In this document: positions 1 to 23,948 of the stretch, piece by piece
How the letters are laid out: each line of letters starts with the position of its first letter
Position numbering within the stretch: position 1 is the stretch's first letter
NCBI RefSeq assembly: GCF_988242995.1
Contig: NZ_OZ547043.1
Length of the DNA: 64,000 nucleotides
Reading direction: 5' to 3' (one strand)
Notes under the pieces: generated by a model
Told to the model about the DNA's origin: nothing
Database searches by the model: none
What the model saw: the letters and a program-made list of their open reading frames with translations, nothing else
Position numbers and translations under genes: made by a program

Positions 1-3000
1 TCCTGCCTGCGCCAGCTCGCCATATTGCGTACATAACGCCTGCAATTCTGGACGGTTTGCCGCCCATTCCCGCAGTGCATTTAGCGGCTGAGTCAATGCG
101 GCTTTCAACTGCGCATCGACCGGATACTCTGCATCCTGACGCGCGAGCGTCACTGCCAGTGCACTTTCCGGGCGATTCGCCAGCAGACGGTAGAGATAGA
201 GCGGACCGCCTGCTTTCGGCCCGGTGCCGGACAACCCTTCGCCGCCGAATGGCTGCACCCCGACCACTGCGCCCACCATATTACGGTTAACGTACAGGTT
301 ACCGACATGGGCCGAGCCAGTGACCTGGGCGATGGTTTCATCAATGCGCGTATGGACGCCAAGCGTCAGACCATAACCGGAAGCGTTAATTTGCTCGATC
401 AGCTCCGGCAGCTGGTTACGGTTATAACGCACCACATGCAGCACCGGACCAAAGACCTCTTTTTGCAATTCGGCAAAGTCATCCAGTTCAATCAGCGTCG
501 GGGCGACAAAGGTGCCGCTTTGCCATTCACGGGCATCTTCACTGTTTTCCCGCACTGCCTGGAACACCGGACGGCCTTTACTACGCATAGTCTGAATATG
601 ACGCTCAATATTGGCTTTCGCTTCGCTATCAATCACCGGACCGATATCGGTGGTCAGGCGACCAGGATTACCCATCCGGCATTCGGCCATTGCGCCGCGC
701 AGCATTTTCAACGTGTGGTCGGCAATCTCATCTTGCAGGCACAGCACGCGCAGTGCCGAACAACGCTGGCCCGCACTGTCGAACGCCGAGGCCAGCACAT
801 CTATTACTACTTGTTCGGTCAGGGCGGAGGAGTCGACAATCATCGCGTTCATACCGCCGGTTTCCGCGATGAGCGGAATAGGGCGACCCTGAGCGTCGAG
901 GCGGCTGGCGATATTGCGTTGCAGTAACGTAGCGACTTCGGTTGAACCGGTAAACATCACCCCGCGCACGCGATCATCACCCGTCAGTTGCGCGCCCACG
1001 GTTTCCCCCCGACCTGGCAGCAATTGCACCACGCCTGGCGGTACACCCGCCTCCACCAAAATGGCAATCCCTTGCGCGGCAATCAGCGGCGTTTGTTCTG
1101 CCGGTTTTGCCAGTACGCTGTTACCTGCCGCCAGTGCGGCAGCGATCTGCCCGGTGAAAATCGCCAGCGGGAAGTTCCACGGACTGATACATACCACAGG
1201 CCCTAATGGACGGTGGGTTTCGTTAGCGAAATCATCCCGCACCTGTCCGGCGTAGTAGTGGAGAAAATCGACCGCTTCGCGCACTTCGGCAATGGCGTTA
1301 CTGAAGGTTTTTCCGGCCTCACGCACCAGAATACCAATCAGTTGCTGCATCTGGCTTTCCATCAGCACGGCAGCGCGATGCAAAATTGCCGCGCGTTCAG
1401 CCGGAGGCGTGGCAAACCAGATTGGTGCGTTATTAACCGCACTTTCCAGCGCCTGTTCTACTTCACTCGGCGTGGCTTCGCGCACATAGCCCACAATATC
1501 TTTCGGCTCTGCCGGGTTAATAACGGGCGACATCTCACCAGCCGCGACCGATTGTTCCAGCATTGGCAAGGCCTGCCATTTTTGCAGTGCACTATTGAGC
1601 AGGGCAGAAGAGAGCGATGCCAGACGGTGTTCGTTAGCGAGATCCAGCCCTGCCGAGTTGTCGCGCCCGTGACCGTAAAGATCGCGCGGCAGGGGAATTT
1701 TCGGATGCGGTAATCCAGTTTGCCCTTCCTGTTGCGCCAGTTTTTCTACAGCAGTGACCGGATCGGCGACCAGTTCATCCAGGGGCAAAGAGGTGTCAGC
1801 AATACGGTTAACAAACGAGGTGTTAGCACCGTTTTCCAGCAGGCGACGCACCAGATACGCCAGCAGCGTTTCATGGGTACCGACAGGAGCATAAATACGA
1901 CACGGACGGTTAAGTTTGCCGTCGGCAACTTTCCCGGTGACCTGCTCATACAGTGGCTCGCCCATACCGTGCAGGCACTGGAACTCGTACTGACCCGGGT
2001 AGTAGTTCTGACCCGCCAGTTGATAAATTGCCGCCAGCGTATGGGCGTTATGCGTTGCGAACTGCGGGTAGATTAGATTCGGCACCGCCAGCAGCTTTTT
2101 CGCACAGGCGAGATATGAAACGTCGGTATACACCTTGCGGGTATAAACCGGATAACCTTCAAGGCCGTCCATCTGCGCGCGCTTGATTTCACTATCCCAG
2201 TACGCGCCTTTCACCAGGCGAATCATCAGACGGCGACGGCTGCGGGTGGCGAGATCAATCAGGTAATCAATCACCAGTGGGCAGCGTTTTTGATAAGCCT
2301 GAATAACAAAACCGATGCCGTTCCAGCCTGCCAGTTCCGGCTCGAAACAGAGTTTTTCCAGCAGATCGAGGGAGATCTCCAGACGATCGGCCTCTTCGGC
2401 ATCGATGTTAATACCAATATCGTACTGACGCGCCAGCAGGGTGAGTGATTTCAGACGTGGGTAAAGCTCTTCCATTACCCGGTCATACTGGGCGCGGCTG
2501 TAACGCGGATGCAGCGCCGACAGCTTGATTGAAATGCCCGGACCTTCATAGATGCCACGACCATTGGACGCTTTACCAATGGCGTGAATCGCCTGCTGAT
2601 AGGAAACCATATACGCCTGTGCATCTGCGGCGGTCAGCGCGGCTTCGCCCAGCATATCGTAGGAGTAACGGAAACCTTTCTCTTCCAGCTTGCGGGCATT
2701 GGCTAACGCTTCCGCGATGGTTTCGCCAGTGACGAACTGCTCGCCCATCAGGCGCATCGCCATATCCACACCTTTGCGGATCAGCGGTTCACCGCTCTTA
2801 CCGATAATGCGGTTCAGCGAGCGGGAGAGGCTGGCTTCGTTATGGGTGGAAACCAGTTTGCCGGTAAACAGCAGCCCCCAGGTGGCGGCATTAACAAACA
2901 GGGACGGGCTACGACCAATGTGTGACTGCCAGTTACCGTTGCTGATTTTGTCGCGAATTAACGCATCACGGGTGGCTTTGTCGGGAATACGCAACAACGC

Positions 3001-3510
3001 TTCTGCCAGACACATCAGCGCCACGCCTTCCTGCGATGACAGCGAAAACTCCTGCAATAACCCCTGGACCATACCTGCGCGACCACTGGCATTTTTTTGA
3101 TTACGCAGTTTATCGGCCAGTTGATATGCCAGTTTATGCGCCTGTTCAGCAACTGGCTGCGGCAGGCGGGCTTGTTCCAGCAGCATAGAAACCGCTTCGG
3201 TTTCCGGGCGGCGATAGGCAGCGGTGATAGCTGCGCGGGAAACCGACTGGGGCAAAATTTGCTCGGCAAAGTCGAGGAATGGCTGGTGTGGTTCCTCTGC
3301 CGGAGTGGGTGCTTCATCGCTCTCATTGGCAGCGCCAGAAAGCAGCGCAGGTAGCTCCGGAAGAGTATCGCTGTTTTCCAGTTGTTCAAGATAAGAAAAA
3401 ATCGCCTGCTTAATTAACCAGTGTGGCGTGCGATCGATACGTGTCGCGGCAGACTTAATACGCTCACGCGTCGCGTCGTCCAGCTTAACCCCCATGGTGG
3501 TGGTTCCCAT
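1..3510 (-). CDS. putA: PutA, bifunctional proline dehydrogenase / P5C dehydrogenase and put repressor; 3' end truncated by window edge
   Basis: Minus-strand frame runs from window edge to ATG at 3508-3510; N-terminus MGTTTMGVKLDD and window-edge residues match recalled PutA; not in ORF track because no stop inside window. Confidence 0.93.
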   Translation of the reverse strand, partial: MGTTTMGVKLDDATRERIKSAATRIDRTPHWLIKQAIFSYLEQLENSDTLPELPALLSGAANESDEAPTPAEEPHQPFLDFAEQILPQSVSRAAITAAYRRPETEAVSMLLEQARLPQPVAEQAHKLAYQLADKLRNQKNASGRAGMVQGLLQEFSLSSQEGVALMCLAEALLRIPDKATRDALIRDKISNGNWQSHIGRSPSLFVNAATWGLLFTGKLVSTHNEASLSRSLNRIIGKSGEPLIRKGVDMAMRLMGEQFVTGETIAEALANARKLEEKGFRYSYDMLGEAALTAADAQAYMVSYQQAIHAIGKASNGRGIYEGPGISIKLSALHPRYSRAQYDRVMEELYPRLKSLTLLARQYDIGINIDAEEADRLEISLDLLEKLCFEPELAGWNGIGFVIQAYQKRCPLVIDYLIDLATRSRRRLMIRLVKGAYWDSEIKRAQMDGLEGYPVYTRKVYTDVSYLACAKKLLAVPNLIYPQFATHNAHTLAAIYQLAGQNYYPGQYEFQCLHGMGEPLYEQVTGKVADGKLNRPCRIYAPVGTHETLLAYLVRRLLENGANTSFVNRIADTSLPLDELVADPVTAVEKLAQQEGQTGLPHPKIPLPRDLYGHGRDNSAGLDLANEHRLASLSSALLNSALQKWQALPMLEQSVAAGEMSPVINPAEPKDIVGYVREATPSEVEQALESAVNNAPIWFATPPAERAAILHRAAVLMESQMQQLIGILVREAGKTFSNAIAEVREAVDFLHYYAGQVRDDFANETHRPLGPVVCISPWNFPLAIFTGQIAAALAAGNSVLAKPAEQTPLIAAQGIAILVEAGVPPGVVQLLPGRGETVGAQLTGDDRVRGVMFTGSTEVATLLQRNIASRLDAQGRPIPLIAETGGMNAMIVDSSALTEQVVIDVLASAFDSAGQRCSALRVLCLQDEIADHTLKMLRGAMAECRMGNPGRLTTDIGPVIDSEAKANIERHIQTMRSKGRPVFQAVRENSEDAREWQSGTFVAPTLIELDDFAELQKEVFGPVLHVVRYNRNQLPELIEQINASGYGLTLGVHTRIDETIAQVTGSAHVGNLYVNRNMVGAVVGVQPFGGEGLSGTGPKAGGPLYLYRLLANRPESALAVTLARQDAEYPVDAQLKAALTQPLNALREWAANRPELQALCTQYGELAQAG

Positions 3511-20352: not shown

Positions 20353-20732
<380 letters not shown>

Positions 20733-20826
20733 GTTTCTGAACAACTCACCTTGCTGAGCAGAAAAATGCGATTTAACCAAAAAGCCTGCTGTACACTTAA
20801 GAAACAAGAAGGTGTAAGGAGGCGTT

Positions 20827-21360
20827 ATGAAAACGCGTATTCATGTTGTGCAGGGTGATATTACCAAACTGGCCGTTGATGTGATTGTGAATGCGGCTAA
20901 TCCGTCATTAATGGGAGGCGGCGGCGTCGATGGGGCCATTCATCGCGCAGCGGGTCCGGCTCTGCTGGATGCCTGTTTAAAAGTCAGGCAACAGCAGGGC
21001 GATTGCCCTACGGGGCATGCCGTTATTACGCTTGCAGGCGATCTTCCCGCTAAAGCCGTAGTGCACACCGTCGGGCCAGTCTGGCGTGGTGGTGAACAAA
21101 ACGAAGACCAGCTTTTGCAGGATGCCTATCTCAATAGTCTGCGACTGGTGGCGGCAAACAGCTATACGTCAGTGGCATTTCCTGCAATCAGTACTGGGGT
21201 TTATGGTTACCCTCGTGCGGCAGCGGCTGAAATCGCAGTAAAAACCGTTTCAGAATTTATTACCCGTCACGCTTTACCCGAACAGGTATACTTTGTCTGT
21301 TATGATGAAGAAAACACCCACCTCTACGAAAGACTCCTTACCCAACAAGGAGATGAATGA
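20827..21360 (+). CDS. ymdB: YmdB macrodomain O-acetyl-ADP-ribose deacetylase
   Basis: 177 aa. Confidence 0.93.
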
Positions 21361-21361
21361 T

Positions 21362-22783
21362 TTGCCCCGGCTGGCGAGCGCGGTGCTGCCACTGTGTTCG
21401 CAACATCCCGGTCAGTGTGGCCTTTTCCCTCTGGAGAAAAGTCTGGATGCGTTTGCCGCCCGGTATCGTCTGGCCGAAATGGCAGAGCATACGCTGGATG
21501 TTCAGTATTACATCTGGCAGGACGATATGTCGGGTCGGTTACTGTTTTCCGCCCTGTTAGCCGCAGCAAAGCGTGGCGTTCGCGTCCGTTTGTTGCTGGA
21601 CGACAACAATACACCCGGACTTGACGACATTTTACGCTTGCTTGACAGTCATCCCCGCATTGAAGTCCGGCTTTTTAATCCTTTCTCGTTTCGCTTGCTA
21701 CGTCCGCTTGGTTATATCACCGACTTTTCCCGTCTCAATCGCCGTATGCACAATAAAAGTTTCACTGTTGATGGCGTGGTGACGCTGGTAGGGGGGCGAA
21801 ATATTGGTGATGCCTATTTTGGGGCAGGGGAAGAGCCACTTTTTTCGGATTTAGATGTCATGGCAATAGGACCAGTTGTAGAGGACGTTGCCGATGATTT
21901 CGCCCGCTACTGGTATTGCAAATCGGTTTCACCCTTACAGCAGGTGCTGGATGTCCCGGAAGGTGAAATGGCGGATCGCATCGAGTTACCAGCATCCTGG
22001 CACAACGATGCCATGACGCATCGTTATTTACGCAAAATGGAATCCAGCCCGTTTATAAATCATCTGGTTGATGGAACGTTGCCGCTTATCTGGGCGAAAA
22101 CACGTTTATTAAGTGATGATCCGGCGAAAGGGGAAGGCAAGGCAAAACGGCATTCACTGTTACCGCAGCGCCTGTTCGATATCATGGGCTCACCCAGTGA
22201 ACGCATCGATATTATCTCTTCCTATTTTGTACCGACACGCGCAGGTGTGGCGCAACTCTTACGGATGGTGAGAAAAGGGGTAAAGATTGCGATCCTAACC
22301 AATTCTCTTGCCGCTAACGATGTTGCTGTCGTCCATGCCGGATACGCACGCTGGCGCAAAAAATTGCTCCGCTACGGCGTGGAATTATATGAACTCAAGC
22401 CGACGCGTGAACAAAGTAGTACGTTACACGATCGCGGCATAACCGGTAATTCCGGTGCCAGCCTGCATGCTAAAACCTTTAGCATCGATGGTAAAACGGT
22501 GTTTATCGGCTCTTTCAATTTCGATCCGCGTTCAACATTGCTCAATACTGAAATGGGCTTCGTGATAGAGAGCGAAACGCTGGCACAGTTAATTGATAAA
22601 CGCTTTATTCAGAGCCAGTATGATGCGGCCTGGCAGCTCCGTCTGGACAGGTGGGGACGGATCAACTGGGTTGATCGTCATGCAAAGAAAGAGATTGTTC
22701 TCAAAAAAGAACCCGCCACCAGTTTCTGGAAGCGGGTTATGGTCAGACTGGCGTCGATATTGCCTGTGGAATGGTTATTGTAA
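21362..22783 (+). CDS. clsC: ClsC cardiolipin synthase C (phospholipase D family)
   Basis: Two HxK-x4-D motifs (HNKSFTVDG, HAKTFSIDG); start ambiguous: ATG at 21353 overlaps ymdB stop, TTG at 21362 gives the 473-aa form I recall. Confidence 0.88.
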   Translation: MPRLASAVLPLCSQHPGQCGLFPLEKSLDAFAARYRLAEMAEHTLDVQYYIWQDDMSGRLLFSALLAAAKRGVRVRLLLDDNNTPGLDDILRLLDSHPRIEVRLFNPFSFRLLRPLGYITDFSRLNRRMHNKSFTVDGVVTLVGGRNIGDAYFGAGEEPLFSDLDVMAIGPVVEDVADDFARYWYCKSVSPLQQVLDVPEGEMADRIELPASWHNDAMTHRYLRKMESSPFINHLVDGTLPLIWAKTRLLSDDPAKGEGKAKRHSLLPQRLFDIMGSPSERIDIISSYFVPTRAGVAQLLRMVRKGVKIAILTNSLAANDVAVVHAGYARWRKKLLRYGVELYELKPTREQSSTLHDRGITGNSGASLHAKTFSIDGKTVFIGSFNFDPRSTLLNTEMGFVIESETLAQLIDKRFIQSQYDAAWQLRLDRWGRINWVDRHAKKEIVLKKEPATSFWKRVMVRLASILPVEWLL

Positions 22784-22790
22784 ACGCGGC

Positions 22791-23948
22791 TTAACGGGCT
22801 GGTGCTTTATCGTTCTCACGCTTAACAACCGGTTTACCAGAGAACAAAAACTTCAGTAACGGGATGCGTAAATGAATTTCATACAGAATTATCGCAATCC
22901 CTACTACGAATATCAGGCCACAGAGAAAACCAAGCCAGTTGGAGGTGATGTGCGGTGTAATGTATGCGCCGAAAAACAGCGTTAACGGGTGGTGAACCAG
23001 ATAGATAAACAGCGATGCGTTAACAAAATAAGTCACCCGCGCTGACTGGAAGTTAAGCAAACGGTGGCCAAAGGAGAAGACCACATTTACCATCCACAGA
23101 CCGAGGACCATGGTGATCACCGACTCGGTTTCGTACATCCAGGCATCGCCACTGCCATAGCGCTGGTTGAGTAAATAAGCGACAAACGCCAATGCTGCTG
23201 CAAGGGTACAGCCACGAGACGGCGTGGTAAACAAGGCTTTAAGGTGAGGGAAAATGAAAGCCAGTGCGCCGAGGATAAAGAACGGCAAATAAAATAGCGT
23301 TTGCATGACAATAAAATTGAACATGCCGTTACTCAGAATGGGCGGATACACAATAAAAATCGTTCTTCTTATTACCGCATAGCCGATGCCGAGGCACAAA
23401 AAAATCACCGATAGTTTTACCATCGAGAATTTTTTATTCGTTTTATCAGAATTTTCTAAATTATTTCTGATGCGTTTAAATATCCATACGCACAGCGTCG
23501 TCATGACTACTAACACCAGTAAAAACCACAGGTGTGATATTAATTCCCAGGCCAACGTATTATATTTGTCATACAATGACAGGCCAGGCCAACTTTCCGC
23601 TTTCCCTTTGACGTATTGCAGCATAATAAATTGCGGTAATGTCAGTAGGGGGATGGCTGTTAACATCGGGATACCTACACGTTCGACACGTACTTTCCAC
23701 CATTTTTTCAAGGGATAGCGTAAAAAAAGCATGTAGGAAAAGTACCCGGATATAACGAAAAATACCTGCATGCGGAACGAGTGGATGAAGTCATTAAAAA
23801 GGGTCAGCCACAATGACGGTTCGGCGCTATTCACATGCCATGTATGGCTCGAATAGATTAAAGAAATATGAAAAGGGATCCCTAACAACATCAGCCAGGC
23901 GCGGATGGAGTCGAGGAAATATTCACGTTGCGCGGGTACTGGATTCAT
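22791..23948 (-). CDS. opgC: OpgC, OPG succinylation membrane protein
   Basis: 385 aa polytopic acyltransferase-3 family. Confidence 0.93.

Follow-up and report, generated by a model that had tools for sequence, protein, structure and literature searches.

We examined the junction between ymdB and clsC in a stretch of 64,000 nucleotides from contig NZ_OZ547043.1 (RefSeq assembly GCF_988242995.1), which we call the window and number from its first letter. The window carries the csgBAC-ymdA-ymdB-clsC-opgC locus of Escherichia coli, and the ymdAB-clsC operon has been cited before (PMC7492729). Over bases 20800-22800 the window is 100% identical to E. coli ETEC1738, whose annotation names the two genes ymdB and clsC, and this region has a match in 5,423 of 5,426 complete E. 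coli genomes. The comparisons below point to an ATG inside ymdB, at 21302 (or the adjacent one at 21305), as the ancestral and main start of clsC, served by a conserved initiation region that would work independently of a Shine-Dalgarno (SD) sequence. For E. coli itself we go no further than calling this probable, because the direct evidence is weak and one related species has the short form alone. The genes and candidate start codons are as follows.

20827-21360, plus strand: ymdB coding sequence, encoding a macrodomain O-acetyl-ADP-ribose deacetylase of 177 amino acids (aa), with the stop codon TGA at 21358-21360 (open reading frame (ORF) list, NF001660 and RefSeq annotation)
21302-22783, plus strand: long coding sequence of clsC, 493 aa, as called by the Prokaryotic Genome Annotation Pipeline (PGAP), overlapping ymdB by 59 nt in the +1 frame
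21302-21307, plus strand: ATGATG, the two upstream in-frame clsC starts, inside ymdB codons Tyr159-Asp160-Glu161
21353-21355, plus strand: ATG in the clsC frame, a junction candidate with a 476-aa product and an 8-nt overlap with ymdB
21362-21364, plus strand: TTG in the clsC frame, the clsC start annotated in K-12 MG1655 (b1046, 473 aa)

A preliminary description of this DNA had named the two genes as a macrodomain deacetylase gene, ymdB, and clsC, and both names are borne out by the NF001660 score and by identity to the annotated genes of ETEC1738. YmdB reaches 375.3 bits against the equivalog model NF001660 (O-acetyl-ADP-ribose deacetylase; cut-off 271), with residues 1-177 of 177 covered. 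ClsC carries two HKD motifs (HxK(x)4D), H150-N-K152...D157 and H389-A-K391...D396, both invariant among 50 homologues, and the families PF13091 (PLDc_2) and PF00614 are on record for its homologues. Against the NCBIfam cardiolipin synthase models ClsC scores below the cut-offs (95 vs 290 for the ClsA type and 83 vs 281 for ClsB), and for this reason we treat it as a paralogue of ClsA and ClsB and a member of neither. The operon is thus a known one and its junction an ordinary one; the identities of its genes are unchanged, and an ambiguity about the start of clsC is already on record.

An open clsC frame inside ymdB

The clsC frame is open from 21242, 40 codons upstream of TTG 21362, and existing annotations place the start at different points within it. 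In MG1655 (b1046, NP_415564.2) clsC starts at the TTG and encodes 473 aa. PGAP starts it at ATG 21302, for 493 aa, in ETEC1738 and in three divergent E. coli strains; the ETEC1738 locus at 2003-3484 corresponds to window 21302-22783. Homologues of ClsC across the Enterobacteriaceae are 490-498 aa long, and the mass of 53,666 Da given for ClsC in the lipid literature (PMC8027125) is that of the 473-aa TTG form. The preliminary description listed only ATG 21353 and TTG 21362, a list that proved incomplete, since the frame also holds TTG 21293, ATG 21302 and ATG 21305. ATG 21302 is made from ymdB Tyr159 (TAT) and the G that follows it, and ATG 21305 from Asp160 (GAT) and its following G, so that they lie 59 and 56 nt inside ymdB in the +1 frame. 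All four candidate starts, the junction SD and both arms of the hairpin described below show no variation among the most divergent E. coli strains in the sample, and a 91-nt segment at the junction has at least 95.6% identity across the 5,423 E. coli genomes.

Loci with relatives of ClsC were compared in a set of 80 from species-representative genomes, plus Salmonella and E. fergusonii. In this set the overlap of ymdB and clsC occurs only in the Enterobacteriaceae, and every overlapping locus except that of Citrobacter werkmanii carries an ATG placed 57-66 nt before the codon that aligns with the E. coli TTG. This upstream ATG is the sole canonical start in Salmonella, Lelliottia, Leclercia, Intestinirhabdus, Enterobacter and Superficieibacter, genera in which no ATG, GTG or TTG was found between it and the conserved core of the protein. 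The start codons at the junction, by comparison, are not conserved across orthologous operons. An ATG at -9 (21353) was found only in Escherichia (E. coli, E. albertii, E. fergusonii and the locus L003). At position 0 (21362) there is TTG in E. coli, L003, E. fergusonii and C. sedlakii, TTA in E. albertii, and ATG in the C. freundii group. This distribution indicates that the junction starts are a younger feature of Escherichia and, at the 21362 position, of some Citrobacter.

The second frame is open beyond neutral expectation, as in a long overlap, and synonymous variation in ymdB is reduced at the embedded start. The clsC frame remains open through the ymdB tail in all overlapping lineages bar C. 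werkmanii. In 11 of the 14 lineages, neutral synonymous recoding would leave the frame open with a probability of about 0.17-0.30 each, and all 14 have it open; the product of these probabilities is 10^-6.9, assuming that the lineages are independent. One codon illustrates how the frame is kept open. Leucine 171 of YmdB, just before an ACC codon, is CTT or CTC in all 19 of 19 species; CTY makes up 24% of leucine codons, and CTG, TTG, TTA or CTA at this place would produce TGA or TAA in the clsC frame. Leu170, which carries no such risk of a stop, varies freely among five codons.

The same tail holds an excess of invariant synonymous codons (3/12 columns, vs 1/116 in the body of the gene; Fisher p=0.0024). 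The three are Tyr159 TAT (the clsC ATG), Glu162 GAA (a clsC Lys) and Thr172 ACC (a clsC Pro), and the lone invariant column in the body is Tyr155 TAC, 12 nt ahead of the ATG. Tyr159 is TAT in each of the 14 species that have tyrosine there. Third-position conservation peaks in a six-codon window at codon 154 (0.75, vs a gene-wide 0.43 +/- 0.08; 17 lineages), and the ten best-conserved windows all fall within ymdB codons 151-162.

Lineages in which the two genes no longer overlap were also informative. In Phytobacter massiliensis (L019, 2317-2495) an intact ymdB and clsC are set apart by about 115 nt of spacer and, after it, a relic of a decayed ymdB 3' end (QIYLSCYDNKNARR). The relic retains ATATACTT...CTGCT-ATG and the open clsC frame in what is no longer ymdB coding sequence. 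Since both ATG and frame are kept there, clsC would have retained its upstream start after separation from ymdB, and the arrangement suggests that ymdB was once rearranged or replaced while the 5' end of clsC was preserved. In Erwiniaceae and Mixta, which lack an overlapping ymdB, ClsC begins 13-16 codons ahead of the core.

A different arrangement is seen in Intestinirhabdus alba (L011), where the ymdB match is limited to residues 113-177 and ends early, at a TGA after ...RLLT. There clsC has kept its long frame and the ATG, and the sequence suggests that ymdB may be truncated or degraded.

Fused proteins of 651-653 aa, in which an N-terminal part of YmdB is joined to full ClsC, are present in E. 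coli (P0001, P0002) and in Salmonella-like bacteria (P0010, P0011); the corresponding segment of the window is 20827-22783. The frame switches at about ymdB residues 84, 124, 73 and 33 in P0001, P0002, P0010 and P0011, respectively. We rejected programmed frameshifting as the origin of a YmdB-ClsC fusion, given that the four switch frame at four different sites. They look like independent frameshift mutations in ymdB or assembly errors, and they arise because the clsC frame is open far upstream in those strains.

Initiation signals and published start-site data

The sequence elements that bear on initiation are listed next.

21285-21301, plus strand: U-rich stretch GGTATACTTTGTCTGTT, the proposed SD-independent initiation region of clsC, nearly invariant and directly 5' of ATG 21302
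21334-21339, plus strand: CUCCUU, predicted 5' arm of a hairpin, in the ymdB Leu170-Leu171 codons, pairing with AAGGAG
21347-21352, plus strand: AAGGAG, the SD and 3' arm of the hairpin, in ymdB Gln-Gly-Asp codons, predicted to be paired

Third-position conservation in ymdB is at its highest in this U-rich stretch. Across genera the sequence (G/A)GTATACTTTGTCTGYT-ATG is nearly invariant, and structure prediction gives ATG 21302 a low cost of opening the local structure. In the explanation that we favour, ribosomes would initiate clsC mainly at ATG 21302 or the adjacent ATG 21305, giving the 493-aa ClsC. They would do so without an SD, by way of the weakly structured and conserved U-rich GGTATACTTTGTCTGTT, and this initiation region would in turn constrain the synonymous sites of ymdB.

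The same stretch could also be read as an internal promoter. Here TATACT (21287-21292) would serve as the -10 element of a transcript from near 21299, and ATG 21302 would be read in leaderless fashion behind a leader of 0-3 nt; this is a variant of the favoured explanation and not an exclusive rival. TATACT matches TATAAT at 5/6 positions and is the -10 hexamer favoured by sigma-S promoters. Its distance to ATG 21302 is fixed at 9 nt in most genera, and it is kept in Phytobacter, where the stretch no longer encodes YmdB. The upstream site has no SD and is always ATG, and ClsC is active in stationary phase (PMC5574711). Several results speak against a promoter. In Citrobacter Cu233 and FP75 TATACT has degraded, and Cedecea and Buttiauxella lack it, although the U-rich tract and the ATG are kept in all of these. 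The predicted transcription start is G21299 and not A21302. A scan of 20700-21500 for sigma-70-type consensus promoters gave no site and no -35 element, and no entry for clsC, ymdC or ymdB turned up when the Cappable-seq tables of transcription starts were searched by coordinate prefix and gene name. We consider an internal promoter improbable. A search of 20700-21700 against Rfam gave no match at E<=1.

The junction has a strong SD of its own. The duplex of AAGGAG with the anti-SD is predicted at -8.5 kcal/mol, with a spacing of 8-9 nt to TTG 21362 and of 0 nt to ATG 21353. AAGGAG is predicted to pair with CUCCUU in a hairpin of 6 bp with a 7-nt loop (pairing probability 0.89-1.0 in three sequence contexts), while TTG 21362 and ATG 21353 are predicted to be unpaired. 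Because of this pairing, the junction SD would be accessible mainly during ribosome passage. Only E. coli, E. fergusonii and L003 have the hairpin; E. albertii departs from it by one mismatch and the other lineages offer nothing comparable, and we dropped the idea of a conserved SD-masking hairpin on that account. Where other genera carry GGAG-like motifs, these derive from Gly-Asp/Glu codons and are not followed by a start codon.

Combined with a main start at ATG 21302 or 21305, an SD locked in this hairpin would leave the junction as a secondary start at most, at TTG 21362 rather than ATG 21353. Ribosomes on ymdB or on the long clsC frame would melt the hairpin and open the way to TTG 21362, that is, coupling by unmasking. 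Judged from the distribution of its elements, such coupling is a possible secondary mechanism, in Escherichia and some Citrobacter only.

Alternatively, the K-12 annotation may be right as it stands. A 473-aa ClsC would then be made from TTG 21362 by termination-reinitiation, with the SD holding ribosomes that have finished ymdB until they restart 2 nt downstream, and the conservation upstream would have some other cause than a start site. This is the codon at which b1046 of MG1655 is annotated, it has the SD strength and spacing given above, and both junction starts are predicted to be free of pairing. The same position is ATG in the C. freundii group and is the sole possible start in C. werkmanii, and the folded core begins two residues further on. 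Masking of the SD would also make clsC dependent on translation of ymdB, which fits the increase in ClsC produced by ymdB (PMC8027125). Against these points stand the TTA of E. albertii and the lack of a start codon at or near this position in most genera. A start at the TTG likewise leaves the open frame, the restriction of Leu171 to CTY and the conservation peak near codon 159 unexplained.

Published start-site experiments bear on the same question. Tetracycline-inhibited ribosome profiling (TetRP) reported a new ATG start for ymdC at -57, which is window 21305 (PMC4909307 Table S2), with 0/30.1/16.1 reads there vs 0/0/5.7 at the annotated TTG (PMC4909307). In INRI-seq, the synthetic clsC transcript starts 30 nt before the TTG and so contains the SD, ATG-9 and the TTG, and not the upstream ATGs (PMC9825163). 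It gave 0 counts per million (CPM) at the clsC TTG in 5/5 replicates, in an experiment that detected about 70% of annotated starts overall, and no alternative start was called at ATG-9 (21353) (PMC9825163). In vivo Ribo-RET values in the same table are 0 at clsC and 51 at the ymdB start (PMC9825163). The INRI-seq null fits the predicted SD hairpin. With 0 CPM in INRI-seq, 0 vs 51 for ymdB in Ribo-RET and only 0/0/5.7 reads in TetRP set beside the comparative data, we judge initiation at TTG 21362 as the source of ClsC to be unlikely, though a good deal less so than a start at the other junction codon.

In that other reading, ribosomes that have terminated on ymdB would move back 5 nt from the stop and restart at ATG 21353, for a ClsC of 476 aa. 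In its favour, no start codon is stronger than AUG, structure prediction leaves this one unpaired, and it is kept in 4/4 Escherichia lineages examined, including E. albertii, which lacks the TTG. The SD, however, abuts it with no spacing, it is absent outside Escherichia, and INRI-seq called no alternative start there. It also arises passively from the ymdB codons GAT GAA. We regard this reading as very improbable; among the three candidate starts we rank ATG 21353 last, and only TTG 21362 is plausible as a secondary one.

At the junction itself the ymdB frame ends in ...CAA CAA GGA GAT GAA TGA, and the clsC frame reads AAG GAG ATG AAT GAT TTG CCC CGG; the 12-mer ATGAATGATTTG occupies 21353-21364. 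All lie on the same strand, and both junction starts are within a few nt of the stop, ATG 21353 at -5 nt and TTG 21362 at +2 nt after the last base of the stop. The preliminary description had an in-frame ATG beginning 5 nt ahead of the first base of the ymdB stop, which the sequence confirms, and a TTG immediately after the stop. The TTG is indeed present in frame, at 21362, with T21361 intervening, and a range of 21353-21362 for the junction therefore ends inside the codon and cuts it. The claim that either arrangement implies coupling stands to the extent that a tie between clsC translation and ymdB is reasonable, and fails in omitting the best-supported start, ATG 21302. The geometry of a short-overlap coupled pair applies only if ATG 21353 or TTG 21362 is really used. 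Calling the choice of codon indeterminable from sequence was too pessimistic, as SD spacing, predicted masking by the hairpin and the comparative data rank the candidates.

Start-like codons (ATG, GTG or TTG) make up 6.6% of clsC codons, and two of them fall inside a four-codon span in about 2.4% of spans. Their co-occurrence at the junction is mildly unusual and, taken alone, unremarkable and not compelling.

Two further features lie close to the junction. One is the following reading frame.

21357-21560, plus strand: out-of-frame ATG ORF of 67 aa, its ATG 4 nt past the AAGGAG SD and overlapping the ymdB stop (aATGa)

The equivalent triplet in E. fergusonii is GTG, the INRI-seq data carry no initiation signal at ATG 21357, and this ORF is probably a by-product of the sequence. 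The other is a terminator-like stem-loop, GGTCAGTGTGGCC followed by TTTTCCCTCT, at 21410-21422, inside clsC and about 50 nt past the TTG. The terminator scan (20700-21500) gave 2 hits vs 0.9 expected, one of which is the minus-strand image of the SD hairpin, and the stem-loop at 21410-21422 is probably due to chance.

The ClsC amino terminus and the weight of the evidence

The product of the upstream start would be a ClsC with a disordered hydrophilic tail of about 20 residues followed by the folded phospholipase-D core. In the long form the first 20 or so residues are hydrophilic, and the folded core starts two residues after the TTG position. We modelled the 493-aa protein with AlphaFold2 from 50 homologues (predicted template modelling score 0.80). 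Because residues 1-19 are disordered in this model, the extension lies outside the ClsC fold, in agreement with its loss in C. werkmanii; as far as the model goes, activity is thus possible for either isoform.

Several points weigh against a main start at ATG 21302 or 21305, and we set them out together. The upstream ATG is largely expected from the YmdB sequence Tyr/Phe-Asp-Glu, with P=0.72-0.95 under neutral codon choice. We therefore dropped conservation of the ATG as stand-alone evidence, and the weight of the comparative case lies on the open frame, the specific synonymous codons and the conservation of flanking nucleotides, not on the presence of the ATG. The SD-like match of ATG 21302 is weak, at -3.8 kcal/mol and 13-16 nt. 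The E. coli-specific strong SD at ideal spacing to the TTG is presumably the basis of the curated K-12 annotation. Just 5-7 ClsC residues precede the core in Hafnia and Pluralibacter. In the model of E. coli ClsC residues 1-19 are disordered and the first helix starts from residue 23; the extension would thus be dispensable for the fold, and the short form could suffice in E. coli.

C. werkmanii NBRC 105721 (L006) belongs with these. Relative to C. youngae it has a 2-nt deletion, about 70 nt before the clsC match, that breaks the long clsC frame. Its ymdB is extended into a true ATGA overlap, it has ATG where E. coli has the TTG, and the upstream ATG is lost through a change of GAT to GAC. By its sequence it is the sole lineage found in which the short ClsC alone is possible; an error in the draft assembly is possible too.

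The published experiments have points on this side as well. The authors of the TetRP study flagged the -57 entry as 'not conclusive (5' ORF)' (PMC4909307), because elongating ribosomes on the strongly expressed ymdB cover the site. The INRI-seq null may in part be an artefact, as the synthetic 5' GGGG is predicted to pair with CCCC just past the TTG. The literature searched held no N-terminal peptide of ClsC and no mutagenesis of its start codon, and the supplements of TRAINSPOTTER N-terminomics, Salmonella riboproteogenomics and Giess 2017 held no entry for clsC, ymdC or ymdB.

With these set against the constraint in the ymdB tail, we still favour the explanation as a whole, a main clsC start at ATG 21302 or 21305 that is SD-independent with the junction secondary at most, and we rate it as likely, with considerable room for doubt. 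The annotation conflict, the conservation, the open frame, the reduced synonymous variation and the prediction of a hairpin are observations; from them we infer which start E. coli uses, initiation without an SD, and coupling.

More distant homologues of ClsC differ at the amino terminus. Homologues from Betaproteobacteria and other Gammaproteobacteria (L042-L081, e.g. L056, L061, L066, L068 and L080), which are 47-53% identical, have a signal peptide of the lipoprotein type. It ends in the lipobox L-[AG]-G-C, after which comes a conserved LPxLxxR motif. In 22/42 beta- and gammaproteobacterial loci the lipobox Cys is placed 19-22 residues ahead of the core, the position of Met1 in the long form. 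The sequences indicate that the signal peptide was lost in Enterobacterales, which bears on the side of the membrane that ClsC faces, a question raised in PMC8027125.

Consequences and known systems

Clones that carry ymdB give more ClsC 'by an unknown mechanism' (PMC8027125). If the start and initiation region of clsC are inside ymdB, this suggests an effect of ymdB on ClsC that is at least partly cis-acting. The real start, the SD-independent region and the first 20 codons would then all lie within ymdB, and constructs made from the annotated TTG would keep only the hairpin-masked SD and yield little ClsC. A clean deletion of ymdB, or a kan insertion in it, would remove the upstream start and initiation region of clsC, and a clsC clone made from the annotated start would lack both. 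This matters for anyone cloning, deleting or tagging either gene.

A stronger form of the argument, which we offer tentatively and think somewhat less probable than its opposite, is that the long-puzzling need of ClsC for ymdB to reach full activity is largely a cis effect of a misplaced K-12 start and that the YmdB protein itself is not required. The ymdB product is reportedly not required for ClsC substrate specificity, going by the title of a 2024 paper by Sawasato and Bogdanov, and the cis explanation agrees with that title.

The main value of the analysis is that it flags a probable error in the reference annotation and offers a simple cis explanation for the dependence of ClsC on ymdB. 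More generally, start ambiguities seen in a single sequence can often be ranked, and here synonymous-site conservation and avoidance of stop codons across orthologous operons sufficed.

The junction can be compared with four known systems. It resembles operon genes coupled by short stop/start overlaps in that both genes are on the same strand of one operon, with in-frame starts at -5/+2 nt and AAGGAG inside ymdB, and C. werkmanii has the true overlap of ATGA-type pairs. It differs from them in that most Enterobacteriaceae have no junction start and their conserved start is found about 60 nt upstream, a distance that simple termination-reinitiation would not span.

The coat and replicase genes of MS2 are the textbook case of coupling by the unmasking of a ribosome-binding site sequestered in a hairpin. 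As in MS2, the SD of the junction is predicted to be paired, with CUCCUU in the upstream coding region, and would be opened by passing ribosomes; unlike that of MS2, the ymdB-clsC hairpin is just 6 bp, predicted only, and confined to a few lineages.

In its sequence features it also resembles long same-strand, out-of-frame overlaps, given the 59-66 nt in the +1 frame, the conservation peak at the embedded start and the avoidance of stops in the second frame. Unlike in long dual-coded overlaps, what the overlap encodes of ClsC is a disordered tail that has been lost in at least one lineage. For that reason selection appears to act mainly on the open frame and the initiation region, and not on a folded, dual-coded domain. 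Finally, the ClsC/YmdB system of Tan et al. 2012 (PNAS 109:16504), as described in PMC8027125 and PMC4966929, consists of the same genes; the literature on it uses the 473-aa protein of 53,666 Da, and the difference here is a probable start inside ymdB.

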